A DNA stretch of 64,000 bases from Candidatus Poribacteria bacterium (GCA_965198235.1 OZ240248.1:2848001-2912000), one strand, 5' to 3'. Numbered from the stretch's first letter, positions 10,779 to 35,116 are shown. The notes: a model not told the origin generated them from the letters alone. Numbers and translations: made by a program.

Positions 10779-11570
10779 ATGATATACCGACAAGTTCTTG
10801 CATATCTCTATGTGCTGGCATTCATTCCATTGAGTGTCAAAGCACTACCGCCCCCTTCACCAGCAGGTGGTGGTATGTTGAAGTTAGATGAAAAACACGA
10901 TTTCGTCGCTACCCCCAACGCGTGGTTTCCCGATGAACAGTTTGAGGGATTGACCGCCGAAGCATGGATCTATTTTGAAAATCCACCTGACCCACTCACT
11001 TTCTGGTCAATCATCGGTCAGGAGGGACGATTCAATTTGGTTATTCATGGCAATAATGTTGTATTAGGTGCATGGGGTTATTCTGAAGGTGCGGCTGGAT
11101 CACTGACTTTCGGAGGTGCCCCTTTGCCCAAAAAGGAATGGATACACGTCACAGCGATTTACGATGCATCCGCAGGAATGGGATTTAACGGTAAGGGCGG
11201 CAACTGGTGCTGCCCGAGAGGTCATCTCATTAAATCAGGCAAACCACTTCGTATTGGCGGCATCATTTCACAAGATCCAGAGCGGAGCCGTTTCGTCGGG
11301 GACAACGTGAAATTTCAAGGATACATTGATGAAGTCCGGATATCCAATGTTGTACGATATGTGGGACCAGAGTGGGAGATCCCGAGAGGGAAGTTCGAGG
11401 TTGATAAACACACCATTTCGCTGTGGCACTTTGATGAACCACAGGAGTTAAGCCGTTTCAAAGATGCGTCCGGAAACGGACATCACCTCTGGAGAAGCGG
11501 TGTTATCAGTGGCTTAGCCGTCGAAGCACAACAAAAACTCACAACCACATGGGGACAGCTCAAGCGATGA
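10779..11570 (+). CDS. Secreted LamG/concanavalin A-like protein with conserved C-terminal tail
   Basis: LTAEAWIY, EWIHV, FQGYIDEVRIS, LWHFDE; ends AVEAQQKLTTTWGQLKR. Confidence 0.85.
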   Translation: MIYRQVLAYLYVLAFIPLSVKALPPPSPAGGGMLKLDEKHDFVATPNAWFPDEQFEGLTAEAWIYFENPPDPLTFWSIIGQEGRFNLVIHGNNVVLGAWGYSEGAAGSLTFGGAPLPKKEWIHVTAIYDASAGMGFNGKGGNWCCPRGHLIKSGKPLRIGGIISQDPERSRFVGDNVKFQGYIDEVRISNVVRYVGPEWEIPRGKFEVDKHTISLWHFDEPQELSRFKDASGNGHHLWRSGVISGLAVEAQQKLTTTWGQLKR

Positions 11571-11624
11571 AACCTCTAAAAAGACCTCTACCAACGGTCA
11601 TGTCCAATTGATAACGGTACCCCA

Positions 11625-11846
11625 ATGTCCTATGTATCGGCACTCGCAGGATCAGAACACCGACTCTACGCGGCTACATCAGAGGGCATATTTTTCTCCG
11701 AAAACGATGGGAATACATGGTTCCTCACTGCATTCGATAATGAGGATAAGTTTATCACCACACTCACAACTCATGGAAATACCGTTTATGCGGGAACGTG
11801 GCGCCACGGCGTATTCCGATCAGACAAAATGCTTATTCAGAAATGA
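11625..11846 (+). pseudogene. Fragment of a BNR/Asp-box beta-propeller gene
   Basis: LYAATSEGIFFSENDGNTW and VYAGTWRHGVFRSD blades in only 73 aa. Confidence 0.6.
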
Positions 11847-23863: not shown

Positions 23864-25360
23864 GTGATGGTAGCAACCGAATCGCATTTCAAACGGTTTA
23901 TCTTTATTTTAATCGACGGGGCACCTTATGAAATCTTTAAAACGTTGATTGAAAACGGTGATCTCCCGAACATCAAGAAATACGTGGTAGATCGTGGTAG
24001 TTTGAATAAAGCGGTCTCCGTCTTCCCGTCAACAACGGGACCCGCCTTTATCCCATTTTTTATGGGATTGTATCCCGGCACGGCAAATATTCCGGGCATC
24101 CGGTGGCTCTCCAAATCAAAATTTCATGCTCCACACCGCTTCAAACGTCCCGGCATCTGTAGTTATATGGGGCTTGACGGGTTGCATTTTGAAGCCGATT
24201 TGCCTCCAGATTTCCCCACTCTGTTTAACTTCTTCTCACCGGTAAGCAACATCTACAATCTTCTCGCTCGCGGGTGTCCACCCTCCAAAAATCTGACGAG
24301 TTGGATTAAACCCTTCATCTATACCTATGCCCACTTTTCGCATCGCTGGCGATTCGTCAATCAGATTGCAGTCCGTCAATTACACAAAGCCGTTGAGGCA
24401 GGCGACAAATTTGTGGTGTGCCTCTTCCCTGCAGTCGATACCTTTTCACATCTCACAGAAATACAATCTCCACAAGTGCTTCAGACTTACCGAGAGATAG
24501 ACACCGCGATTGGAAACCTCATTCATACTTTGCAAAGGGCGAACACCCTCCAAGAGACACTGATTCTGATTACCAGCGACCATGGAATGACCGACACACA
24601 TACACATATTGATGTCCCGCAGCATTTAGACGATGCGGGCTGGCGATGTTTGCATTATCCAAAGATTTGGCGGCAAGGCGCTGTATCCGCCAGCATCGTA
24701 TCAGGAAACGGAATGACACATCTCTATTTTAAAAATAATCCGGATGGGAAGGGATGGGGCGAACGGACACCTTTCGAGCAGCTTCATAAAATGGGGGTCA
24801 TTAGTTCCCTGATTGAATTGGAAGGATTGGGACTTGTCGCAGGGCAGAGCGAAACTGGTGACATTATCGTCCAAAACCGAGGTGGACAGGGAAGAATCTC
24901 CTGTCACCCAGAACACACAGACCGCGGAAATTCACAAAGCATAACGCCTACTTTGAAATGCGTAGACTCGCTGCGCTTCTCTTACGAGTTCACTGGAACG
25001 GACCCGCTTGGATACGGGGTTCACTATGAGAATCTGTCCTCACGGAAAACACTACGTGAAACCTACAACAGTCCGTATCCTGATGGGATCGTTCAATTGT
25101 GGCAGATTTTCAAGAGCGAACGAACGGGCGACCTCGTCCTAAGTGCCGAAAACGGTTATGACTTACGCGCTCGTTATGAAATACCGGAACATCATGCAAC
25201 ACACGGTGCATTAATCGCGGAACATTTGCACATCCCACTCGCAACGAATTACCCAATTGCCGAACAGTACATCCGATCCGTTGATGTCTTTCCAACGGTG
25301 CTAAGCCTATGCGGACATAACGTTGCCGTGCATCACATTGATGGTAGAATCGTCAAGTAA
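23864..25360 (+). CDS. Alkaline phosphatase superfamily (nucleotide pyrophosphatase/phosphodiesterase-like)
   Basis: ILIDG, SVFPSTT nucleophile region, DTFSH, TSDHG, THG. Confidence 0.88.
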   Translation: MMVATESHFKRFIFILIDGAPYEIFKTLIENGDLPNIKKYVVDRGSLNKAVSVFPSTTGPAFIPFFMGLYPGTANIPGIRWLSKSKFHAPHRFKRPGICSYMGLDGLHFEADLPPDFPTLFNFFSPVSNIYNLLARGCPPSKNLTSWIKPFIYTYAHFSHRWRFVNQIAVRQLHKAVEAGDKFVVCLFPAVDTFSHLTEIQSPQVLQTYREIDTAIGNLIHTLQRANTLQETLILITSDHGMTDTHTHIDVPQHLDDAGWRCLHYPKIWRQGAVSASIVSGNGMTHLYFKNNPDGKGWGERTPFEQLHKMGVISSLIELEGLGLVAGQSETGDIIVQNRGGQGRISCHPEHTDRGNSQSITPTLKCVDSLRFSYEFTGTDPLGYGVHYENLSSRKTLRETYNSPYPDGIVQLWQIFKSERTGDLVLSAENGYDLRARYEIPEHHATHGALIAEHLHIPLATNYPIAEQYIRSVDVFPTVLSLCGHNVAVHHIDGRIVK

Positions 25361-25568
25361 ACCGAGGTCTCACCACACAAATTTTCAAACCGCGTCTCCA
25401 CCTCTGTAGGAGCGATCTCTGGTCGCGACTGAGGTTTCTATTTTCGCTGGCGAAGGTCTTTAGAAAAACCCACACGCGATTCTTCCTAACCTCGTCAATT
25501 GCAATCACCCTGTCTTAGGAGATTCCCCAACAGATATTTTCTTTCAAACCTACTTTTTTCCAGAATTA

Positions 25569-25595
25569 TGCACCTACTCTCCCTGAATTCGCGTC
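25569..25595 (+). promoter_or_regulatory. Putative ECF-type autoregulatory promoter
   Basis: TGCACC-17-CGTC, conserved upstream of both ECF genes. Confidence 0.55.
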
Positions 25596-25709
25596 ATTAT
25601 ATAGTGAAGTGAACGGATAGGGTATTCTTGGCTCTTTGTAAGTGTCTCTACCCACGAAACGTGTAATTTGTTACGCTCCCTGATACAACCGTCTTTCTGG
25701 AGACATCAG

Positions 25710-26924
25710 ATGAAAAGCAACGATGTTGAGTTGATCCAACGCACCCTTGCCGGTGATGAGACTGCTTTTGCGAGTTTGATTGAAAAATACCAACGGCAGG
25801 TTCACACGCATGCCCTGCGGCAAATAGGGGACTTCCACATCGCCGAGGATATTACACAGGAGACCTTCCTGCGAGTCTATCAGAACTTGAAAACCCTGAA
25901 TGATCCGACACAGTTTTCAAGGTGGCTTCATGCGATTGTGAATCACCTCTGTATCGCATGGCACCGAAAAAATCGGATGCAGACCGAATCGCTAGAAGAA
26001 ACTCACATCTCGGAAACAGAAAGAGAGGCATATTCCCGATATGTCGCATCAGAACACGAGAAAACATCTGATGAGGCACAACGCGAACTCGTCAAAAAGC
26101 TGCTTGCGAAGTTGAAGGATAGTGACCGAGAGGTTATCACACTCCACTACTTTGAAGAGATGACATCTTCAGAGATAGGCGACTTTTTAGGTGTGTCTGA
26201 AAATACGATTAAGAGCCGACTACACCGGGCGCGACAGCGATTAAAGAAATATCAAGCCCTAATTCAAGAGGTGTTAGACCCTACAATCGAACGGAGACAC
26301 CGTTCCCAACATCCGTCGCAAGGAGAAATCAACATGGCAGAGGAAATGAGAGATGAAGCCAAAATCGAAGCAAGGCTGAAAGAACTACAGCGTCAGATTA
26401 CTGATTTGCAAGAAGAAATTAGGGGTATCGCTGCTGAATCAGACACTTTCCACCCTGATAACATGGAATTTCTTGACCCGGAAAAAAGTGTAGCTCTTAG
26501 GACGCTATGTCGTCTTCCCGATAGTGATGGAAGGGCGATCTCGTGGGGTTATGTCGGCGGCTATCGGACCTCTCCGGGTAAAACGACTGCCCGCGTTGCA
26601 TTCTGGGGCGATAACATCGATAGTTTCCTAACAAAAGCACCAGCCACTGAAATCGTGAACCTTGCAAGTCTCTTCACAAATCCCACTATAGTCGCTGTTT
26701 TAAGGCAATTAGTGGAAGGAAAGAGATCGGTCGCGGATCTGGCAAAAGGGTGTGGTATCTCAGAAAGTGAAATAGAGAAAGCCGTGCAGACATTAATGGA
26801 CGCAACGTTAGTGGCGCGCACGGAAAACGATCTCATCGAACCCAAAAACGATGTCGTCTCCTTTTTTCTGAACTTCGTGAGTATGACAATCGTGCATCTT
26901 GGGCATATCAAATCCGAGAATTAG
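25710..26924 (+). CDS. ECF sigma factor with C-terminal coiled coil and winged-helix-like domain (copy A)
   Basis: Region 2 AEDITQETFL, region 4 SSEIGDFLGVSENTIKSRLHRAR; extension with VLRQLVEGKRSVADLAKGCGISE. Confidence 0.9.
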   Translation: MKSNDVELIQRTLAGDETAFASLIEKYQRQVHTHALRQIGDFHIAEDITQETFLRVYQNLKTLNDPTQFSRWLHAIVNHLCIAWHRKNRMQTESLEETHISETEREAYSRYVASEHEKTSDEAQRELVKKLLAKLKDSDREVITLHYFEEMTSSEIGDFLGVSENTIKSRLHRARQRLKKYQALIQEVLDPTIERRHRSQHPSQGEINMAEEMRDEAKIEARLKELQRQITDLQEEIRGIAAESDTFHPDNMEFLDPEKSVALRTLCRLPDSDGRAISWGYVGGYRTSPGKTTARVAFWGDNIDSFLTKAPATEIVNLASLFTNPTIVAVLRQLVEGKRSVADLAKGCGISESEIEKAVQTLMDATLVARTENDLIEPKNDVVSFFLNFVSMTIVHLGHIKSEN

Positions 26925-27112
26925 ACTCGGTTCGGTACTTCAATGGAGTATCCAGAAATTACCGAATCTTAGGTAAATGGACTTCTGTTTTCGCTAACGA
27001 GGTTAGGAAGAACCCACACGCGGTTTTTCCTAACTTTGCCAACTACAACCACCTTGTCTTAGGAAATCCTCCGACAGATATTCCCTTTCAAACCTACTTT
27101 TCTCCAGAATTA

Positions 27113-27139
27113 TGCACCTACTCCCACCTCATTCGCGTC
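27113..27139 (+). promoter_or_regulatory. Putative ECF-type autoregulatory promoter
   Basis: TGCACC-17-CGTC. Confidence 0.55.
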
Positions 27140-27257
27140 ACTATATAGTGAAGCAAATTGATAGGGTGTTTCTTCTGGTTTTGCAAGCGTGCTTAACCGA
27201 GAAACGTGCAAATTGCACACGCTTTCTTGCTGAAAATAGCCTTTCTGGAGATGTGAA

Positions 27258-28445
27258 ATGAAAAGCAACGATGTTGAGTTGATCCAACGCACCCTTGCCG
27301 GTGATGAGACTGCTTTTGCGAGTTTGATTGAAAAATACCAACGGCAGGTTCACACGCATGCCCTGCGGCAAATAGGGGACTTCCACATCGCCGAGGATAT
27401 TACACAGGAGACCTTCCTGCGAGTCTATCAGAACTTGAAAACCCTGAATGATCCGACACAGTTTTCAAGGTGGCTTCATGCGATTGTGAATCACCTCTGT
27501 ATCGCATGGCACCGAAAAAATCGGATGCAGACCGAATCGCTGGAAGAAACTCACATCTCGGAAACAGAAAGAGAGGCATATTCCCGATATGTCGCATCAG
27601 AACACGAGAAAACATCTGATGAGGCACAACGCGAACTCGTCAAAAAGCTGCTTGCGAAGTTGAAGGATAGTGACCGAGAGGTTATCACACTCCACTACTT
27701 TGAAGAGATGACATCTTCAGAGATAGGCGACTTTTTAGGTGTATCGGAAAATACGATTAAAAGTCGGCTACACCGGGCGCGGCAGCGGTTGAAGAAGTAC
27801 GAATTTATGATTCAAGAGGCATTAGACATTACAATAGAAGATAGCCATCGCTCCCAAGACCAGTTGGAAGGAGAAATTATCATGACAGAAGAAACGAGAA
27901 ATGAACCCAAGCACACAGCAAGCCTTGAAGAAATGCAGCGTCAGATTGTTGATTTGCAAGAGCAACTTCGGGTTATTGCAGATGAATCGGATGCTTTTCT
28001 GGACACCGAAAAAAAAGAAGCCATTTCAAAATTATGTCGACTCCCCCATAATGTTGAGAGTCCAATCGCTTGGAGTTACGGGGGTGCCTACCGGACCCCG
28101 TCCGGAAAGAGGTCAAGGCGTTTCTCACTCTGGACGGACAACATTGACAATTTCCTATCCAGAACCCCGGATGCCGCGATTGTAAATCTTGCGAGTATCT
28201 TCGCAAATCCGACGGTTGTCGCTGTTTTAAGACAGTTGGTAGATGAGAAGAAATCGGTTACGGATTTAGCAAACGATTGTGGCATCTCAGAAGGTGAGAT
28301 TGAGCAAGCTGTGGAGACGTTAGTAGACGCAAAATTAGCGGCTTGCACGGAAGATAATCTCATTGAACCCAAAAATGATGCCGTGTTCTACTTCCTGAAT
28401 TTCGTAGGTATGACAAGGGTCCATCTGGATCCAAAAGACCACTAA
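27258..28445 (+). CDS. ECF sigma factor with C-terminal coiled coil and winged-helix-like domain (copy B)
   Basis: Sigma core identical in protein to copy A; diverged C-terminal extension. Confidence 0.9.
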   Translation: MKSNDVELIQRTLAGDETAFASLIEKYQRQVHTHALRQIGDFHIAEDITQETFLRVYQNLKTLNDPTQFSRWLHAIVNHLCIAWHRKNRMQTESLEETHISETEREAYSRYVASEHEKTSDEAQRELVKKLLAKLKDSDREVITLHYFEEMTSSEIGDFLGVSENTIKSRLHRARQRLKKYEFMIQEALDITIEDSHRSQDQLEGEIIMTEETRNEPKHTASLEEMQRQIVDLQEQLRVIADESDAFLDTEKKEAISKLCRLPHNVESPIAWSYGGAYRTPSGKRSRRFSLWTDNIDNFLSRTPDAAIVNLASIFANPTVVAVLRQLVDEKKSVTDLANDCGISEGEIEQAVETLVDAKLAACTEDNLIEPKNDAVFYFLNFVGMTRVHLDPKDH

Positions 28446-28539
28446 TCGCGGTTAATTACTTCGTAAGCGCGATTGCACAAAAGACTGTTACAGCATAACG
28501 GCTTATGTCTACTACTTGATTATCACAAAGGAGTGTTCA

Positions 28540-29124
28540 ATGTTTTTAGAAACCTTGAGACGCCGGCTTCTTGCCTATCTGATAAAATTTCGTTTTACAA
28601 TCACAGTTATTACCTGTCTGCTTTTCGTTATCACAACCACCCTTATTGGGGATGAACCTGACAATCTTTTTGATGAACGAAAAAAGGAGGCACTTAGCAC
28701 ATTGCGTCGGCTCCCCAATGATGCTGAAAGGCCGTTCTCGTGGGGTTATGTCGGTGGCTATCGAACCTCTCCAAACAACGCGCATAATGATACCGCATAC
28801 TGGTGGGGTGATAACACCGATAGTTTCCTAACAAAGGCATCAGATGCCGAAATCGCGGAGTTCTTAAGCCTTTTCACAATTCCTACCGTAATTTCTGTTT
28901 TAAGACAGCTGGTGGAAGGCGACAGATCGGTTGCAGATCTGGCTAAGGCGTGTGGCGTATCAGAAAAGGAAGTAGAGAAAGCTGTGGAGCTGCTAATGGA
29001 TGTGAAGTTAGTGGCACGCACGAAAGACAATCTCATCAAACCCCACAACGATGCCATCTCCTTTTTTCTCAACTTCGTGGGTATGACAATCATGCATCTT
29101 GAACACGTCAAACCTGATAATTAA
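28540..29124 (+). CDS. Chimeric protein: ABC permease N-terminal TM segment fused to the ECF C-terminal domain
   Basis: First ~36 aa align to the 29268 permease; remainder aligns to the ECF extensions (SWGYVGGYRTSP, SFLTKA, FFLNFVGMT). Confidence 0.8.
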   Translation: MFLETLRRRLLAYLIKFRFTITVITCLLFVITTTLIGDEPDNLFDERKKEALSTLRRLPNDAERPFSWGYVGGYRTSPNNAHNDTAYWWGDNTDSFLTKASDAEIAEFLSLFTIPTVISVLRQLVEGDRSVADLAKACGVSEKEVEKAVELLMDVKLVARTKDNLIKPHNDAISFFLNFVGMTIMHLEHVKPDN

Positions 29125-29267
29125 CCTCGTTCCAACACTTGATAGACGCGCTTTGAAAGCGCGCTTATCAAATTTTGCGTCTATTCCGATCTATACAAGG
29201 TTCTTGGTTTGTGGACAATACGTTCAATCTGCAGGATTTTTCCTGCACCAAGTAAAGGAACCGTTCA

Positions 29268-30776
29268 ATGTTTTTGGTGCTATTGAGGCGTGAGATTCTC
29301 GCGCATCTAATAACATTTCGTTTTGCAGTCACAGTGATTGTTTGTCTGCTTCTCGTCGTCATAACCACGCTTATCAGAATTGATGATTACGAGAAACGAT
29401 TGGCGGGCTACAATACCGCCAGAAATGCCAATCGTGAAGAACTTTTGTCCACCCGAACTTATTCCTTTTTGATGCCGAAGGTCGATCGACCGCCTAATCC
29501 GCTGAGCATCTTTAATGCTGGTATGGACAACCGACTCGGTAATACGTTGCGGATCTATTACACGAACGTTCCTGTCCTTTGGGATGCTCAAGTCCACAGT
29601 TCAGGTAATCTCTTCATTGATTATTTCTATCGAATTGACCTCATCTTCATTTTTCAGTTTGTGCTTTCATTATTGGCACTGTTGTTCGCCTACGATGCGA
29701 TTGCAGGTGAACGTGAAACCGGCACAATGCGCCTGACAATGAGCCATCCCGTAAGACGTGGAAGCATCTTGGCAGCGAAGTACCTCGGTGCGATGACGTG
29801 TCTAATTCTACCGCTTATCATCAGTTTTATCATCGCTTTGATTTGGATAGTATCAACGGGTTCAATTGTCTTCAGTGGAGATGATTTTCTACGAATCGCA
29901 GGCATCCTGCTAACTTCGATGATCTATCTTTCTGCCATCTACTTGATCGGATTATTTATCTCTGCTTGGGTACACCGCACTACCACAGCACTCATGCTCT
30001 CTCTATTTGTCTGGGTGGTACTGGTGCTGGTTTATCCTTCTCTTAGTGTCTCCATGATTGATCAATTGACGAGCCCGGTAGACAGTAGGATATATTCTTG
30101 TGAAAAGGCGATCCGACAAACCCTAGACACAGTCACGAAAGAGGGACGGGAATATCTCATGAACGATGGGATTGACGGAGAGAGTGAGAACTTTAACATG
30201 CAAGGAAAATCGGATGGTTTACATGTTGGCATAGGTGACGGAAGCATAGCGATGCGTATAGAATTCAAAGCTTATGATTGGTACGCTATTCATCCCGAAT
30301 CTGAAAAATTCATTCCTCATGTTATCCGCTACCATCAATTCTTAACGCCCTTACGATTTCAGGCGGCAGAGAAAATCGGACTGTTGCGACTTCCGGCTTT
30401 AGAGCAAATTCGGTTTCGGAGAGCCAGAATCGCTCGGAATCTGCTTCGACTCTCACCAGCGGCGATGTATAATCTCGCAACACAGGCATGGGCAGGAACA
30501 GATCTCTATGGGGTCGAGGATTTTTTTCAGGCAGCACGGCAGTACCGACGTACGCTGGTTGATTACTTTTACGATAAAGATGCTTTTTCAAGTCGGCAGT
30601 GGTTCGCCAGCGATAAAGGGGCTATCAACTTAGACGATCTGCCAAGATTTGTATACCAGCGTGCTGATCTCTGGACAAACGCCTCACGGGCACTCCCTGA
30701 TCTGCAGCTACTACTGCTGCTCAACGTTGCGCTGTTCCTGGCGACATTCGCAATCTTCGTCAGGCAGGAGATTTAA
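29268..30776 (+). CDS. ABC-2 type transporter permease
   Basis: YDAIAGERETGTMRL..SHPVRR..LAAKY; large extracytoplasmic loops. Confidence 0.88.
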   Translation: MFLVLLRREILAHLITFRFAVTVIVCLLLVVITTLIRIDDYEKRLAGYNTARNANREELLSTRTYSFLMPKVDRPPNPLSIFNAGMDNRLGNTLRIYYTNVPVLWDAQVHSSGNLFIDYFYRIDLIFIFQFVLSLLALLFAYDAIAGERETGTMRLTMSHPVRRGSILAAKYLGAMTCLILPLIISFIIALIWIVSTGSIVFSGDDFLRIAGILLTSMIYLSAIYLIGLFISAWVHRTTTALMLSLFVWVVLVLVYPSLSVSMIDQLTSPVDSRIYSCEKAIRQTLDTVTKEGREYLMNDGIDGESENFNMQGKSDGLHVGIGDGSIAMRIEFKAYDWYAIHPESEKFIPHVIRYHQFLTPLRFQAAEKIGLLRLPALEQIRFRRARIARNLLRLSPAAMYNLATQAWAGTDLYGVEDFFQAARQYRRTLVDYFYDKDAFSSRQWFASDKGAINLDDLPRFVYQRADLWTNASRALPDLQLLLLLNVALFLATFAIFVRQEI

Positions 30777-30881
30777 AGACAGATCCGTTCGTAGTAGGGA
30801 AACCATTTATTGCCCGTCGTACACAGTCTTTTGGAAACGACGAATCAACTAATCCAAAAAAGCGACAACTGGAGATATGAG

Positions 30882-32354
30882 ATGATTTTCCACATCGTTA
30901 AACGCGAACTCTACGATCACCTAAGTAGTCTCCGTTTCGCACTGACAACCCTGTTAATCCTGATACTGATGATTGTCAACGCTATCGTGTACCTCGGAGA
31001 ATACAAGCAGCGAATGCGCAAATATCAAGGGCAGGTTGCTTGGTCACGTAACGAGTTGAAATCTCGATCTGCTACGTTGTATCGTCTGGTTCTAAAGGGT
31101 CCGGGATACCTCTACAAAAAACCGAGTCTTTTGGCTTTCTGTGCAGATGGTGGAGAAAAACTCCTGCCTGGCGAAGTCCGCGGCAATACTGCGGGGCGGA
31201 CGCATCGGTGGCGGGGTGGCGACACTTCGTATAAGTTCACAGAAATCTGGGGGTTAATATATCCACCCAATACCGATCTACTGTTTATTGCAGAGCAGAT
31301 ACCAAGGGAAAGAAGCATCATGCCGGCTTATATCAAAATCGATTGGGGATTTGTGACAGCCGTTCTATTGAGTTTCATGGGTATCCTGTTTACATTCGAT
31401 TCGATCTCCGGTGAGCAGGAACGAGGCACACTGCGGTTGATGCTGGCAAACAGCATTTCACGAAACACCGTAATTTGCGGCAAATTTCTTGGCGCATTTT
31501 TTACTATCGCTATTCCGTTTTTGATTGGAGTGATCGTCAGTACCTCTATCATCTACCTTTCCAAAGCCGTTCAATTCAACGATAGCCATTGGGTGAGGTT
31601 GGGAGCCATCCTCTGTGTCGCGTTGATTTATACCTCAATTTTTATTCTGTTGGGGCTCCTTGTTTCCAGCCGTGTTAAAGAGTCTTCAACGAGCCTCGCA
31701 ATTCTCTTGTTGATTTGGACGGTCTGGGTGGTGCTGATGCCAAACGCACTGGGTTCCCTCGGTAACCGTTTGCAGTCCCGTCCCACCCCCAAAGAATTCA
31801 TGGCGCAGGTTCAAGATTCGCGCGAAGATTTACAGGCACGCTATTTTGCCCGGATTAAAGAACCTCCCCGACGAGAAACCCCAGCCACAATCGCAACAGC
31901 GTTAGGCGCGGAATATATTAATAAAGACGCAGAATTGCGCGATCGTTTGCGAGCGGACTACCTTTTCGCGGAACTCCGTCAAATCCAAACCGCCCGGTCC
32001 CTGACCCATATTTCACCAGCAGCTATTGTGCAGTACGCTTTTGAAGGGCTTGCAGGCACTGGCTTGCCTCGTCATTTAGACTTCATCTCTCAAACACGTC
32101 AATACGCGAAACAGTTTCGGCAGTTTCTCATTGATACCGATCGCGCAGACTCGGAAAGTCCGCACGCCGTCGGTATCCCAGAAGGCACATCGCAAAAACC
32201 AGTGAATTTCGATGCCGTCCCGAAATTTGAAGATCAACACCGCTTTCGTGCGGATTTTAATGCCACAATTATTGACTTATTGCTATTGATTCTGTTCTTG
32301 CTGGTGTTATTCGTTAGTACTTTCCTCTCTTTCCTACGCACGGAAATTGGGTAA
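30882..32354 (+). CDS. ABC-2 type transporter permease
   Basis: FDSISGEQERGTLRLMLANSISR..GKF; GGAG RBS before MIFHIVKRE. Confidence 0.88.
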   Translation: MIFHIVKRELYDHLSSLRFALTTLLILILMIVNAIVYLGEYKQRMRKYQGQVAWSRNELKSRSATLYRLVLKGPGYLYKKPSLLAFCADGGEKLLPGEVRGNTAGRTHRWRGGDTSYKFTEIWGLIYPPNTDLLFIAEQIPRERSIMPAYIKIDWGFVTAVLLSFMGILFTFDSISGEQERGTLRLMLANSISRNTVICGKFLGAFFTIAIPFLIGVIVSTSIIYLSKAVQFNDSHWVRLGAILCVALIYTSIFILLGLLVSSRVKESSTSLAILLLIWTVWVVLMPNALGSLGNRLQSRPTPKEFMAQVQDSREDLQARYFARIKEPPRRETPATIATALGAEYINKDAELRDRLRADYLFAELRQIQTARSLTHISPAAIVQYAFEGLAGTGLPRHLDFISQTRQYAKQFRQFLIDTDRADSESPHAVGIPEGTSQKPVNFDAVPKFEDQHRFRADFNATIIDLLLLILFLLVLFVSTFLSFLRTEIG

Positions 32355-32437
32355 CTTATCAAACACCATTATGCCATTGACGGGCGATAAATCGCCCTAC
32401 TACAAACCTCCATTTGTTGTTGATAACTAATCCTGAT

Positions 32438-32466
32438 TTGACTTTCCCCGCCAAATGTGCTATTAT
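32438..32466 (+). promoter_or_regulatory. sigma70-type promoter
   Basis: TTGACT-17-TATTAT with extended TG. Confidence 0.55.
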
Positions 32467-32561
32467 CTTAATGATTGATTACAGTAGAGCGCGGTTCAGA
32501 AGGTCGCTGCGCGTTCAAGAATACTCAGATTCAGACGAAACCCTCAACTTTCAAGTTAACT

Positions 32562-33335
32562 ATGCCAATACCCAATTTCCCCGACAAACATAAATCGCGT
32601 CCCATAGTCACACCACAGCAGCACGTCGCGTACTTCCGTCAACAAGGCTTCATCCCCGATTTCCCGATTCCTGAGGGTGTCATTTTCTGTTATGAAGGGA
32701 ACCTTCTGGATCGTATTACCAGCATTGAAAACGTTGAGCAGGTTCGCGGGGTAAGTGGAGAATTTTATCTGCTGACTGAAACCGATAATCGCGTGGCAGT
32801 TAGCGGCAATAACGGCATCGGTGCCCCCGGTATCTCAATGATTCTTGAAATTCTGATAGAGTTGGGGGTTAAACGATTTATCAACGTAGGAATCGCTGGT
32901 GGATTACAAAAAAACTCTCACATTGGCGATGTCGTCGTTTGCACCAGTGCCATTCGCGATGAAGGCGTTTCATATCACTACTTGGAAGACTCCTCAGCAC
33001 CTGTACTGCCGTCCGAAAACCTGACAGATGCATTCATGCGAACCCTTGCGCGCGACGGCATTCCTTATACACAGGGACCAACATGGACCACTGATGCCTT
33101 TTTCCGTGAAACGATTGGAGAAATTCAACATTATCAACAGGAAGGGGTTGTCACGGCTGAGATGGAAGCCGCCGCTTTATTCGCCATCAGTACGCTGCGC
33201 GGTGTGGATATGGCCTCAGGGTTTGTCATCAGTGATTTGGTGGCTGAATTAGTGTGGCATCCACAGATCCTCGCCCAAGAAACACACGAGAGTTTATTTC
33301 GCTTGTATCAGGCAGCGCGGGCTACCTTACAATAG
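32562..33335 (+). CDS. Nucleoside phosphorylase (PNP/UDP family)
   Basis: GIGAP, GIAGGL, AIRDEGVS, WTTDAFFRET, AEMEAAA. Confidence 0.9.
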   Translation: MPIPNFPDKHKSRPIVTPQQHVAYFRQQGFIPDFPIPEGVIFCYEGNLLDRITSIENVEQVRGVSGEFYLLTETDNRVAVSGNNGIGAPGISMILEILIELGVKRFINVGIAGGLQKNSHIGDVVVCTSAIRDEGVSYHYLEDSSAPVLPSENLTDAFMRTLARDGIPYTQGPTWTTDAFFRETIGEIQHYQQEGVVTAEMEAAALFAISTLRGVDMASGFVISDLVAELVWHPQILAQETHESLFRLYQAARATLQ

Positions 33336-33644: not shown

Positions 33645-35116
33645 TCTTCGGGCAGGAGACCCCATCCTGACCCACAGGACAGCACATTGCTTTGTGCAGT
33701 CCTGTGGGATGGTTGGGGAGGAATGCCCGCTCCTTTTTTCTTGATGTATGATGCCAAAAATGTTATACTCTTTACATACCAGTTGGCAGACATACATAGC
33801 GTAATCGCAAGGTTACGTGTCTGCCTACCCACTATGTAGGGGTTAAAAACTGGTGACTGGTAAAACCATGAGAACTGGAAAATATCAAATACGCGACCAT
33901 CGACAGAATATGCGCGTGGGCAATATGCTGGACGATCTCGGTGATGTCCACAACCACTTCTTGGCGTTGGAAAAGCGATATTACCGTATTTACGGCAAGT
34001 ATGCGGGTCGGTATCGGTTGCAACCGCACTTGACGAAGTTGCTCCAACGCACCCATCCGCACTGGGTGTGGATCCCGCGAGATACGCTTGACCAAGTGAT
34101 TGTTCGTATTCATATCGGTTACGAGCGTTTCTTTGATTGGCTTGAAAACGGTAAGCGTGGCAGACGCGTGGGGCCTCCGAAGTTCAAAAAGCGTGGCAAA
34201 TATCGCTCTGCGAAGTTTCAAACCGGCTATAAGATTTTTCAAGAACGCCCGGACGGGAAACCCTCTGTTGTTCCGAAAGGCACGATTCGCTTGTCCTTCA
34301 AAGAATGGGACGCAAGAAAACAAAAGTTCGTTTTTGTCCGCAGGAATATCCTGTATCACCACCACCGCGATTGGGAAGGAAACGTCCGCTATATCCAAAT
34401 CCTTCGCGATCGCGCTGGAACGTATTGGCTTTATGTTGTCACGGATAACACCTCCAAAGAAGTGCTGCCCGCTACAGGTGAAAGCGTAGGCGCAGACTTC
34501 GGTATGGACACCTATCTGACACTGAACACGGGTGAAAAGATCCAACACCCACAACCCTTGAAACACTCCTTGAACGAACTCCGAAACCTCAACAAAGCTG
34601 TCAGCCGAAAGGTCAAAGGTTCTAATAACTGGTGGCGTGCCGTCCGTGAACTCGCACGTCTTTATCGCAAAATTGCCAACCAACGCAAGGATTGGCACTG
34701 GAAACTTGCCACTGACCTCTGCCGAAGGTTTGATACGATCGTAACCGAGACGCTGAACCTTGAGGCAATGAAACGGCTCTGGGGGCGAAAAGTATCTGAC
34801 CTCGCCTTTTACCAGTTTGTTGAGATATTGGATTTCAAGTGTATCAAACATAATCGTGAGTTCTTTCAAGTCGGGCAGTGGACCCCTACCACCAAACCTT
34901 GTTCTGACTGTGGACATCACAACGATAAACTTTCACTTTCTGATAGGCAGTGGATATGCCCCGACTGTGGTTCTCACCACGACCGAGACATCAATGCTGC
35001 GATAAATATCTTGAGGGCTGCTTGCGGTCCCTCTGTGGAGATAGCGTAAGACCTTCTACGGAAGGCTGCTGTCTACGAAGCACAAGCCCCACGCTTTAGC
35101 GTGTGGGTGCCTTGAC
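33642..35116 (+). mobile_element. IS200/IS605 family element, tnpB only (IS1341-like, non-autonomous)
   Basis: Left-end hairpin GGGCAGGAGACCCC...GGGGAGGAATGCCC; right-end hairpin CAAG-CCCCACGCTTTAGCGTGTGGG ending TGAC; no tnpA; no target duplication seen. Left boundary approximate. Confidence 0.85.
33853..35049 (+). CDS. tnpB: RNA-guided endonuclease TnpB
   Basis: PPKFK, RuvC-I GADFG, RuvC-II TETL, Zn ribbon CSDC/CPDC, RuvC-III HDRDINAAINI. Confidence 0.95.
   Translation: MTGKTMRTGKYQIRDHRQNMRVGNMLDDLGDVHNHFLALEKRYYRIYGKYAGRYRLQPHLTKLLQRTHPHWVWIPRDTLDQVIVRIHIGYERFFDWLENGKRGRRVGPPKFKKRGKYRSAKFQTGYKIFQERPDGKPSVVPKGTIRLSFKEWDARKQKFVFVRRNILYHHHRDWEGNVRYIQILRDRAGTYWLYVVTDNTSKEVLPATGESVGADFGMDTYLTLNTGEKIQHPQPLKHSLNELRNLNKAVSRKVKGSNNWWRAVRELARLYRKIANQRKDWHWKLATDLCRRFDTIVTETLNLEAMKRLWGRKVSDLAFYQFVEILDFKCIKHNREFFQVGQWTPTTKPCSDCGHHNDKLSLSDRQWICPDCGSHHDRDINAAINILRAACGPSVEIA

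Follow-up and report, generated by a model that had tools for sequence, protein, structure and literature searches.

A candidate self-regulating ECF sigma factor module with a fused winged-helix partner in Poribacteria

Introduction

How is an ECF sigma factor controlled when no anti-sigma gene lies beside it? This question is raised by a locus of Candidatus Poribacteria bacterium, which belongs to a group of sponge symbionts. The locus lies in a 64,000-nt window (the whole stretch of DNA that was analyzed; GCA_965198235.1 OZ240248.1:2848001-2912000). Three genes in a row carry one domain of ~150 aa, twice after ECF sigma cores and once after a membrane helix, and two ABC-2 permease genes come directly after them (Table 1). 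In the searched text of one paper, C-terminal extensions rank second in frequency among the modes of ECF regulation and are associated with an absent anti-sigma gene (PMC7826278). Such extensions are thought, in the corresponding text of two others, to originate by gene fusion (PMC7671368, PMC8999054). A sequence-only reading of the locus had proposed that an ArsR-like sensor domain regulates the sigma, with the third copy acting as a membrane-tethered partner or decoy linked to an exporter. The most likely reading of the analysis presented here is a self-contained sigma system.

Table 1. Coordinates of the features discussed, counted from the first letter of the window.
Feature	Position	Strand	Basis or remark
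ECF-type promoter-like motif upstream of sigA	25569..25595	+	TGCACC, 15-nt spacer, CGCGTC
Gene-conversion tract in sigA	25693..26200	+	1 base different from 27241-27748 in sigB
sigA, ECF sigma-partner fusion, 404 aa	25710..26924	+	gene call, Pfam; TIGR02937
sigA sigma2	25776..25976	+	
sigA sigma4	26085..26243	+	
sigA linker, residues 186-208	26265..26333	+	read as old intergenic region; AAGGAG at 26320-26325
sigA partner part, internal ATG (M209) to end	26334..26921	+	AlphaFold2 model, fold and profile matches
Long helix of sigA partner (beta-hairpin follows)	26337..26441	+	
Winged helix of sigA partner	about 26616..26909	+	
Promoter-like motif upstream of sigB	27113..27139	+	same motif
sigB, paralogous fusion, 395 aa	27258..28445	+	gene call, Pfam
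sigB internal AAGGAG	27868..27873	+	ATG at 27882
sigB shared domain	27993..28442	+	
Gene 3, membrane-anchored copy, 194 aa from ATG	28540..29124	+	repeat and protein searches, relatives' starts; called from TTG 28516, start moved as in relatives
Gene 3 membrane helix	about 28594..28650	+	
Gene 3 shared domain	28663..29121	+	
Permease 1, ABC-2 type membrane protein 1	29268..30776	+	ABC2_membrane_2, DUF3526
Permease 2, ABC-2 type membrane protein 2	30882..32354	+	called from 30810, start moved to ATG 30882 as in relatives

One domain in three genes

When the gene 3 protein was compared with the whole genome, it matched the sigA tail (E 3e-58, 64% identity), the sigB tail (E 1e-47, 53%) and the start of permease 1 (E 5e-9, 63% across residues 6-45), and nothing further in the 5.17 Mb. 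A DNA repeat search likewise returned three 300-nt copies at 74-78% identity. Judged from these sequences, the resemblance among the three genes far exceeds chance. The claim that a single domain is used three times is thus borne out, and its proposed consensus motif agrees with the alignments.

Of the 176 genomes of the phylum, 93 contain the domain, as do 8 of its 31 genera. At E<=1e-3 the domain accounts for just 74 clusters among 1.84 billion representatives. A scan of 185,579 species gave 68 loci, of which 66 were titled Poribacteria and the remaining two "uncultured bacterium". As far as found, the family is almost confined to Poribacteria.

The sigma cores

Both sigA and sigB contain Sigma70_r2 (residues 23-89) and Sigma70_r4_2 (126-178) in Pfam, and sigA scores 112.7 bits against the NCBIfam model TIGR02937 (cut-off 42.9). 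With sigma2 and sigma4 regions only and the ECF superfamily model matched, their sequences place both among the ECF (group 4) sigma-70 factors. The best specific NCBIfam model is SigW, at 115.5 bits and under its cut-off of 209. About 220 aa lie C-terminal to sigma4, where more than 50 aa counts as an extension. Within the interval bounded by the phosphodiesterase and phosphorylase genes, no gene matched an anti-sigma family in Pfam, in agreement with the earlier statement that no recognizable anti-sigma gene is adjacent.

The two cores differ by 1 base in about 480 nt; identity is ~83% between the promoters and ~70% between the tails. Core identity of the paralogues is 0.969 here versus 0.73-0.84 in 13 further genomes carrying the two, and the near-identical cores are read as a gene conversion tract. 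Across genomes, type A and type B tails form separate clades; the sigma-partner fusion was duplicated into these two types long ago. A truncated third sigma paralogue is located elsewhere in the genome.

A promoter-like motif, which the sequence-only reading had also picked out, precedes both sigma genes. The motif proved to be real and conserved: of the 48 sigma genes examined, 32 have it upstream, all of them among the 35 fused genes of family f1 and none among the 13 others. In this genome there are 7 matches versus 1 for a reversed-pattern control, and the motif also precedes the truncated paralogue. An RNA-library contig of a related strain begins at 25586, within the sigA motif. The motif was not found upstream of gene 3 or the permeases, which counts against the main reading.

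The origin of the extension

In genera g6 and g15, which belong to another family of the phylum, the sigma gene (188-191 aa) and a gene for the helix and domain (208-224 aa) are separate. Their overlap is 8 nt (ATGAATGA), with 8 nt or more in G069, G079, G081 and G064, and the partner gene has AAGGAG 10 nt upstream, the same hexamer as in the sigA linker. In G080 and G081b, homologues of the two permeases come directly after the split pair (E 3e-171 and 5e-170 against the window's permease 1; 8e-146 and 7e-147 against permease 2). Because separate, overlapping sigma and partner genes survive in another family of the phylum, the extension is, with little doubt, a whole former neighbor gene fused to the sigma gene. 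The proposal of an ArsR-like sensor domain regulating the sigma therefore holds for the fold but needs revision for the extension, which appears to be an entire former gene and not simply a sensor domain.

The Shine-Dalgarno-like AAGGAG and the ATG at the old gene start have been retained in 34 of 39 fusions, and the partner may therefore also be produced alone from this internal start. In the split form, the partner gene lies directly behind the sigma gene and overlaps it, which is the translational coupling expected of anti-sigma genes. Anti-sigma factors are classically encoded at such a site, right after the sigma gene and translationally coupled to it.

The fold and charge of the partner

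The sigA partner (M209-N404) was modeled by AlphaFold2 with a pLDDT of 89.5 and a pTM of 0.71. It consists of an amphipathic helix of ~35 residues, a short helix, a long beta-hairpin in which a W-G motif is nearly invariant, and a winged helix of ArsR/MarR type. Model residues ~100-196 superpose on MarR, ArsR and SmtB structures (VIA-align Z 11-12.7, rmsd 1.8-2.6 over 81-94 residues; Foldseek E about 1e-3). Profile searches of the PDB matched SmtB (3.9e-5), NolR (7e-5) and also CzrA, so the ArsR-like assignment was upheld. The Pfam family HTH_20 (cut-off 27) scores 28.4 bits in sigA and 33.0 bits in sigB and drops to 17.2 bits for M209-N404 alone; it gives no match in gene 3, which reaches no Pfam cut-off. 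The NCBIfam ArsR/SmtB model HTH_metalloreg scores 25.2 bits, with a cut-off of 55. The partner's only recognizable part is a DNA-binding fold, an observation that speaks against the main reading.

The charge of the partner points elsewhere. The domain has a net charge of -3 to -5 and M209-N404 of -9, versus +3 for sigma4. In the SmtB alignment, S-E-S-E-I-E-K-A stands at the place of the recognition helix and T-E-N-D-L-I-E-P at that of the wing. The partner is acidic overall and, as read from the sequence, also on the helix and wing equivalent to the DNA-contacting elements of ArsR, and DNA binding by it is unlikely. Because the DNA-reading helix and wing are acidic, the partner probably acts on the sigma as a regulator or sensor rather than as a DNA binder. 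None of 38 family members scanned in Pfam matched an anti-sigma family (zf-HC2/ZAS, RskA, NepR etc.), and NCBIfam likewise returned no such match; fold searches for anti-sigma likeness covered the winged-helix part. The full-length AlphaFold2 model (pTM 0.33) has low inter-domain confidence and gives no confident sigma-partner arrangement.

A proposed mechanism

The ancestral gene order would have been sigma, small cytoplasmic partner and two ABC-2 type membrane proteins, and in the family of this genome the sigma and partner genes have merged into a single reading frame. The partner would be the regulator of the sigma, occupying the genomic place of an anti-sigma factor. Once fused, it would work in cis on the sigma2/sigma4 core, holding the sigma off or setting its activity, with release upon a signal sensed by the hairpin and winged-helix part. 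The active sigma would then serve its own TGCACC-N15-CGCGTC promoter and probably also the downstream membrane proteins. As a whole, the reading of the cassette as a lineage-specific, self-regulating ECF sigma module of Poribacteria with a partner-controlled sigma is mildly favored; that the partner regulates its own sigma in cis is an even call.

The partner could instead be an activator or scaffold needed for sigma folding, dimerization or RNA polymerase binding, an unlikely alternative. A comparable case is the TPR extension of ECF42, described in the searched text of PMC8999054 as essential for activity. Fusion of an inhibitor without an obvious release route would be awkward, and the long N-terminal helix of the model resembles a coiled-coil or dimerization element. 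ArsR and MarR folds are usually dimers. The split gene, however, is coupled just behind the sigma gene in the anti-sigma place.

The permeases

Both permeases match ABC2_membrane_2 (E 1e-28 and 100.9 bits for permease 1, E 2e-31 and 109.9 bits for permease 2; cut-off 27.2) and DUF3526. The suggested link to an exporter needs revision: two ABC-2-type membrane proteins are encoded, and no ATPase gene lies beside them in any locus examined. Neither a Walker A nor an LSGGQ motif was found in any ORF of the two split-form loci or of their extensions (L071, L072, L081, L082), and none of the window's ORFs scanned in Pfam matched an ABC ATPase family. The gap in the G004 locus contains two small unrelated ORFs. 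Permease 1 adjoins the sigma-partner pair even in the split form (G080, G081b). Since several genomes keep the sigmas and have lost the permeases (G007, G017, G016, G018), a functional link between sigma and permeases is not obligatory.

The membrane-anchored copy

Gene 3 had been called a chimera, and the comparisons agree. Positions 28535-28646 repeat 29263-29374 at 76% identity, and by sequence the membrane helix of gene 3 derives from the start of permease 1 (first ~36 residues). It came about by a deletion joining these residues to a type-A-like domain, and a single origin of the membrane copy was not rejected (AU p 0.145). The protein is predicted to be N-in/C-out in 11 of 11 orthologues. 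Its domain is most likely displayed on the membrane's outer side, next to the permeases. The earlier idea of a membrane-tethered partner or decoy is unlikely because the predicted C-out domain would sit outside the cytoplasm, away from the sigma. Another chimera, P0126, has the order sigma, membrane helix, spacer and domain. The membrane-anchored copies and P0126 would place the domain outside the cytoplasm, a poor fit with a purely sigma-binding role.

Gene 3 might also be a by-product that recombination left behind at a hot spot of rearrangement and that is tolerated, functionless at least in this genome. This is a less probable alternative than an activating partner. Gene content and order of the phosphodiesterase-phosphorylase interval differ across the 8 same-genus genomes compared, further chimeras and remnants occur (P0007, P0126, a deletion in G136, a 93-aa remnant in G018), and most domain-bearing genomes are without the membrane form. 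The copy of this genome has the longest branch (0.42-0.46) and a dN/dS of 0.30-0.36 in 6 of 7 computable pairs. Against a by-product, the frame is intact in 11 genomes of two genera, dN/dS is 0.09-0.26 in pairs excluding this genome (0.09 for G132-G113, 0.18 for G098-G100), and all 11 orthologues keep the charge bias around the helix. RNA-library contigs match gene 3 exactly at 28530-28782 and 28833-29104, with DNA carry-over uncontrolled. These findings point to an old gene under purifying selection, and not to the strain-specific, unexpressed product that the sequence-only reading had kept in view.

Least probable of all is that the winged helix of the fusions is a working DNA binder, either a second DNA-reading head or an on-board ArsR-type repressor with an operator near the promoters: the fold and profile are typical of ArsR/SmtB/MarR repressors, HTH_20 exceeds its cut-off in both sigmas, and the conserved HTH or PadR neighbors of some ECF groups are thought, in the searched text of PMC7826278 and PMC8999054, to control transcription, but the recognition helix and wing are acidic, the net charge is negative, the ArsR/SmtB model stays far below its cut-off, and domain copies are predicted outside the membrane.

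Comparison with known systems

The self-regulating sigma module preferred here resembles several described systems. In the texts searched, including the main text of PMC7826278 and part of one supplement, no ECF group with this extension was found. Compared by description in these texts, the extension fits none of the SnoaL-like, TPR, Cys-rich, WD40, DUF1835 or multi-TM types. The extended ECFs, such as M. tuberculosis SigJ and groups ECF56, 205, 294 and 295, likewise have a sigma2-sigma4 core followed by a fused domain of ~100-200 aa. They have no adjacent anti-sigma gene, and in the searched text the core of the same chain is thought to be what their extension acts on (PMC7826278, PMC8999054). 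Unlike the SigJ type, the extension here is a helix, beta-hairpin and acidic ArsR/MarR-type winged helix and not a SnoaL fold. In addition, the pair still occurs in split form within the phylum, the junction retains a ribosome-binding-like site and an ATG, and a membrane-anchored paralogue of the extension exists.

In ECFs fused to their own anti-sigma (some ECF36; ECF52 SCO4117), the extension is also thought to stem from an old translational fusion with a regulator, according to the searched text of PMC8999054. Those extensions are described there as having zinc-finger or DUF2275 anti-sigma parts together with membrane helices, with proteolytic release proposed, whereas the extension here is soluble and matches no anti-sigma family. 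A winged-helix or HTH companion has been described to replace the anti-sigma in ECF265 (PadR) and in ECF130 and ECF201 (HTH proteins), again in the searched text (PMC7826278, PMC8999054). Those companions are separate genes and presumed DNA-binding repressors; here the partner is mostly fused, its DNA-facing elements are acidic, and it has a helix and a hairpin in addition. ArsR/SmtB and MarR repressors share the winged-helix fold and the profile matches given above. In contrast to them, the partner is not a stand-alone dimeric repressor, falls below the NCBIfam cut-off and is attached to a sigma or a membrane helix. Self-regulation of a sigma through a fused extension is known, and an extension of helix, hairpin and acidic winged helix is what this module adds.

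The locus and its shared domain

The cassette comprises two ECF sigma factor genes (sigA and sigB), each fused to a C-terminal partner, a third gene that anchors a copy of the shared domain in the membrane (gene 3), and two ABC-2 permease genes. Both sigma factors pass the ECF superfamily model TIGR02937 (112.7 bits vs. a cut-off of 42.9). Neither reaches a specific NCBIfam sigma family, the best being SigW at 115.5 bits vs. 209. The sequence-only reading, that three consecutive genes carry one domain, is borne out: the last ~150 residues are homologous in sigA, sigB and gene 3. When the whole 5.17-Mb genome was searched, gene 3 matched the tails of sigA and sigB (E 3e-58 and 1e-47) and no other tail-like sequence. 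Gene 3 opens with ~36 residues copied from the N-terminus of permease 1 (76% DNA identity; E 5e-9). A search for ATPase genes adjoining the permeases found none.

Features of the cassette and its flanks (window positions)
Feature	Position	Strand	Remarks
Phosphodiesterase-family gene, left flank	23864-25360		
sigA, 404 aa	25710-26924	+	Sigma70_r2 + Sigma70_r4_2
Internal AAGGAG of sigA	26320-26325, ATG 26334	+	
sigB, 395 aa	27258-28445	+	Sigma70_r2 + Sigma70_r4_2
Internal AAGGAG of sigB	27868-27873, ATG 27882	+	
Gene 3, membrane protein, 194 aa	ATG 28540 to 29124	+	Shared domain + permease-derived N-terminus
Permease 1, ABC-2 type membrane protein	29268-30776	+	
Permease 2, ABC-2 type membrane protein	30882-32354	+	
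PNP/UDP-phosphorylase-family gene, right flank	32475-33335		

Just beyond the cassette lies a TnpB-like gene (OrfB_IS605 and a Cas12f1-like TNB domain; 33853-35049, +), and related TnpB genes are found within or beside the same locus in three related genomes (G008, G016 and G135). Between the permease genes, a ~35-nt element (30785-30819) has a contig depth 5-10 times that of its flanks in all four runs, with depths of 1046, 390 and 1286 vs. roughly 100. Loose contig ends are abundant at 30785-30787 and 30817-30825, and the element resembles a short repeat present in high copy number in the sponge metagenome.

Taxonomic range

The cassette is a real, conserved and phylum-restricted ECF module. 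Its domain was found in 93 of the 176 genomes of the phylum and in 8 of 31 genera (53/64 genomes in genus g1, 20/40 in g13, 10/10 in g5 and 5/20 in g6). Only 74 clusters at E<=1e-3, 48 of them at <=1e-10, came up when 1.84 billion representative proteins were searched with the profile. The source names in a protein search and the record titles in a species-wide scan are Candidatus Poribacteria. In that scan, a pattern-based survey of 185,579 species that detects close relatives only and sets no bound on the wider family, 66 of 68 loci were titled Poribacteria and 2 "uncultured bacterium". The nearest ESM Atlas clusters are generic ArsR-family proteins of ~190-215 aa, mostly from Bacillota (scores 0.93-0.95), and serve as a lead only.

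Structure of the partner

The partner part of sigA (M209-N404) was modelled by AlphaFold2 from a diverse 38-row alignment with a pLDDT of 89.5 and a pTM of 0.71. The model consists of a helix (2-36), a second helix (49-58), a long beta-hairpin (68-94) and a winged helix (95-192). In the fold searches only the winged helix was matched (MarR, ArsR and SmtB at Z 11-12.7; Foldseek E about 1e-3). The family profile matches SmtB at 3.9e-5 and NolR at 7e-5. In the profile alignment, positions of the SmtB recognition helix and wing are occupied by Glu/Asp in the partner. The net charge is -3 to -5 for the domain and -9 for the whole partner part, and sigma4 carries +3. The winged helix has probably ceased to bind DNA and may bind protein instead, plausibly basic surfaces of the sigma factor.

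The full-length AlphaFold2 model (mean pLDDT 66, pTM 0.33) gave no usable inter-domain arrangement. A complex prediction for the sigma core (1-190) and the partner (M209-N404), both entered as alignments, scored 0.00 vs. a mark of 0.32 and, being without controls, says nothing either way.

Origin of the fusion

In family f3 of the phylum (genera g6 and g15), a minimal ECF sigma factor of 188-191 aa and a protein of 208-224 aa, composed of an N-terminal helix and the shared domain, are encoded separately. One such genome (G069) has an 8-nt overlap of the two genes, with AAGGAG 10 nt ahead of the second ATG. In two others (G080 and G081b) the split pair is directly followed by homologues of both window permeases (E 3e-171 and 5e-170; 8e-146 and 7e-147). 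The order sigma factor, partner, two ABC-2 proteins therefore represents an old module. Sigma factor and partner share one reading frame in families f1 and f2. The C-terminal extension is a former partner gene that was fused to the sigma gene, and its domain make-up is new.

Two junction styles exist. Fusions of the type found in G031 have no linker after sigma4, and those of the window type have a ~23-residue linker that ends in the old ribosome-binding site. The difference hints that fusion took place more than once. Recent splits were considered for second copies in G028 and G040 and ruled out, as these are broken genes and not clean split pairs. Further architectures were also observed: P0007 has a membrane helix and two tandem copies of the domain, and in P0133 and P0130 (with and without a sigma factor, respectively) the domain is followed by an unassigned C-terminal region of ~130-140 aa.

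Evolution of the locus

The tails form two clades, type A (sigA-like) and type B (sigB-like). Each clade spans many genomes, so the duplication is old. Gene content between the flanking genes varies widely among relatives. This genome has sigA - sigB - membrane copy - permeases; other arrangements are sigA - membrane copy - sigB without permeases (G007, G017 and G171), sigA - membrane copy - permeases - sigB (G151), sigB - permeases (G014), and sigB with a 93-aa remnant (G018). In G004 there is a further sigma-membrane gene (locus L019, 2932-4591), whose ECF sigma factor is joined via a membrane helix to an apparently frameshifted outer domain. The same locus also carries, in the interval from permease 2 to the phosphorylase gene (10928-11661), a pair of small ORFs that may represent a toxin-antitoxin pair.

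The cores of sigA and sigB are 0.969 identical over 555 nt in this genome, with one base difference in the first ~480 nt. Core identity between the paralogues is 0.73-0.84 in 13 other genomes, and homogenization was seen in this genome only. It is the result of recent gene conversion. Compared with other genomes, the core found here shows an identity of 0.84 with that of G006 and G024 (type A) and of 0.85 with that of G014 and G018 (type B), values that do not tell the donor apart. As a consequence of the conversion, the two sigma factors have sigma2 and most of sigma4 in common; what distinguishes them is essentially the tail.

The membrane copy

A membrane copy with a permease-derived helix was found in 11 genomes, 5 of g1 and 6 of g13. 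In the tree, the domains of these copies form three groups within the type-A-like half, and a single origin was not rejected (AU p 0.145). In pairs without this genome, dN/dS of the membrane copy is 0.09-0.26 (close pairs 0.09, 0.18 and 0.19); sigma tails give 0.13-0.36, with close membrane-copy pairs much alike. For gene 3 of this genome, six of the seven computable pairs give 0.30-0.36 and the seventh gives 0.13, and two pairs were saturated; many dS values exceed 1, which makes these ratios rough.

The positive-inside rule links the charge of the segments flanking a membrane helix to topology. In each of the 11 orthologues, net charge changes from positive (+1 to +4) in the segment ahead of the helix to negative (-2 to -4) in the one behind it. 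By this rule gene 3 is predicted to be N-in/C-out, with its domain outside the cytoplasm. The same outer side is implied by P0126, a protein with the order sigma factor, membrane helix, spacer, domain. Both the predicted topology and this architecture argue against the earlier suggestion that gene 3 acts as a decoy for the sigma factors. A purely sigma-binding role would leave the predicted outward placement of domain copies unexplained.

Promoter-like motif and RNA evidence

The promoter-like motif TGCACC-N15-18-CGCGTC is present in 32 of 35 fused f1 genes, 67-150 nt ahead of the sigma start, and in 0 of 13 other sigma genes examined. Of the 7 matches in this genome (1 for the reversed control), one stands away from the cassette and ahead of a third sigma paralogue (L074, G000:C1:1736691-1739717, ORF 1642-2154), a truncated gene for 170 aa that has lost sigma4 and starts 115 nt downstream of the motif. 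Another lies ~110 nt upstream of a gene for an ABC exporter with fused membrane domain and ATPase (L079, G000:C1:4345832-4348859, ORF from 1637), which is a candidate regulon member. The motif was not found ahead of gene 3 or the permeases, and a sigma-70 promoter and terminator scan of 25300-32600 gave counts no higher than shuffles. Motif and sigma start are separated by a ~110-nt leader (25596-25709 and 27140-27257) whose sequence is itself well conserved in sigA and sigB. Leaders of about this length occur in many relatives, and a form of ~70 nt in some.

X1, a sponge metatranscriptome library, has a 1414-nt contig from a related strain over 25586-26994, together with exact contigs over the sigB tail (27875-28374) and gene 3 (28530-28782 and 28833-29104) at depths of 3-9. 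These contigs speak for presence only and not for starts, strands or levels, DNA carry-over being uncontrolled and uncovered parts uninformative.

A possible second start within the fusions

In the fusions, M209 of sigA and its equivalents correspond to the start Met of the separately encoded partner. A GGAG lies within 18 nt upstream of this Met in 34 of 39 fused genes, which are related by descent and hence not independent counts. The remaining five have near-variants such as AAGGGGAA. As a control, GGAG stands at the same place for 138 of 1877 other in-frame Met codons in ORFs of the same loci. The Gly codon of the motif is almost always GGA, which makes up 27% of Gly codons in these genes, and the residue ahead of it may be K, E or Q, with the DNA still reading AA. 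A type B gene of G136 has lost ~470 nt of the sigma core. What remains is the promoter, 46 codons of leader, the internal motif and an undamaged reading frame for the partner. This frame differs from that of the leader, so that the partner is producible only from the internal start.

The internal motif may be a relic held by constraint at the protein level. Another proposal, which we regard as possible yet rather doubtful, is that AAGGAG-N8-ATG is a working second start, whereby one mRNA would yield the fusion and a free ~22-kDa partner, and that gene 3 would display the sensor domain outside beside the ABC-2 proteins, so that one signal would be sensed from inside and outside. The mode of regulation, the internal start and the outward orientation of the membrane copy are all proposals. 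If the second start works, it would provide a built-in, tunable ratio of sigma factor to regulator and add a new layer of sigma control. The coexistence of split, fused, membrane-anchored and sigma-less forms in one phylum makes the fusion route and the binding partners testable with natural variants.

Comparison with known ECF extensions

A literature search on Poribacteria sigma factors found nothing on this family. The parts of PMC7826278 and its supplement available to us do not mention winged-helix, ArsR, PF12840/HTH_20 or Poribacteria, and those of PMC7671368 do not mention winged-helix, ArsR, MarR, HTH or Poribacteria. On internal translation in ECF sigma or anti-sigma genes, the accessible portions of the literature held only a Fusobacterium mCherry doublet, which is irrelevant here. 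The module belongs to uncultivated sponge symbionts, in a phylum whose regulatory biology is almost unknown. ECF sigma factors with fused regulatory tails are valued as compact, orthogonal switches, and few tail types have been studied so far. As far as the sections at hand go, extensions of ECF sigma factors accompany the absence of an anti-sigma gene, and gene fusion can give rise to them (PMC7826278, PMC8999054, PMC7671368). The types described in these sections are SnoaL-like, TPR, Cys-rich, WD40, DUF1835, multi-membrane-helix and anti-sigma-derived (PMC7826278 and supplement; PMC8999054 with Table 2; PMC7671368). To these the Poribacteria tail, an acidic winged helix combined with a helix and a hairpin, adds a new type.
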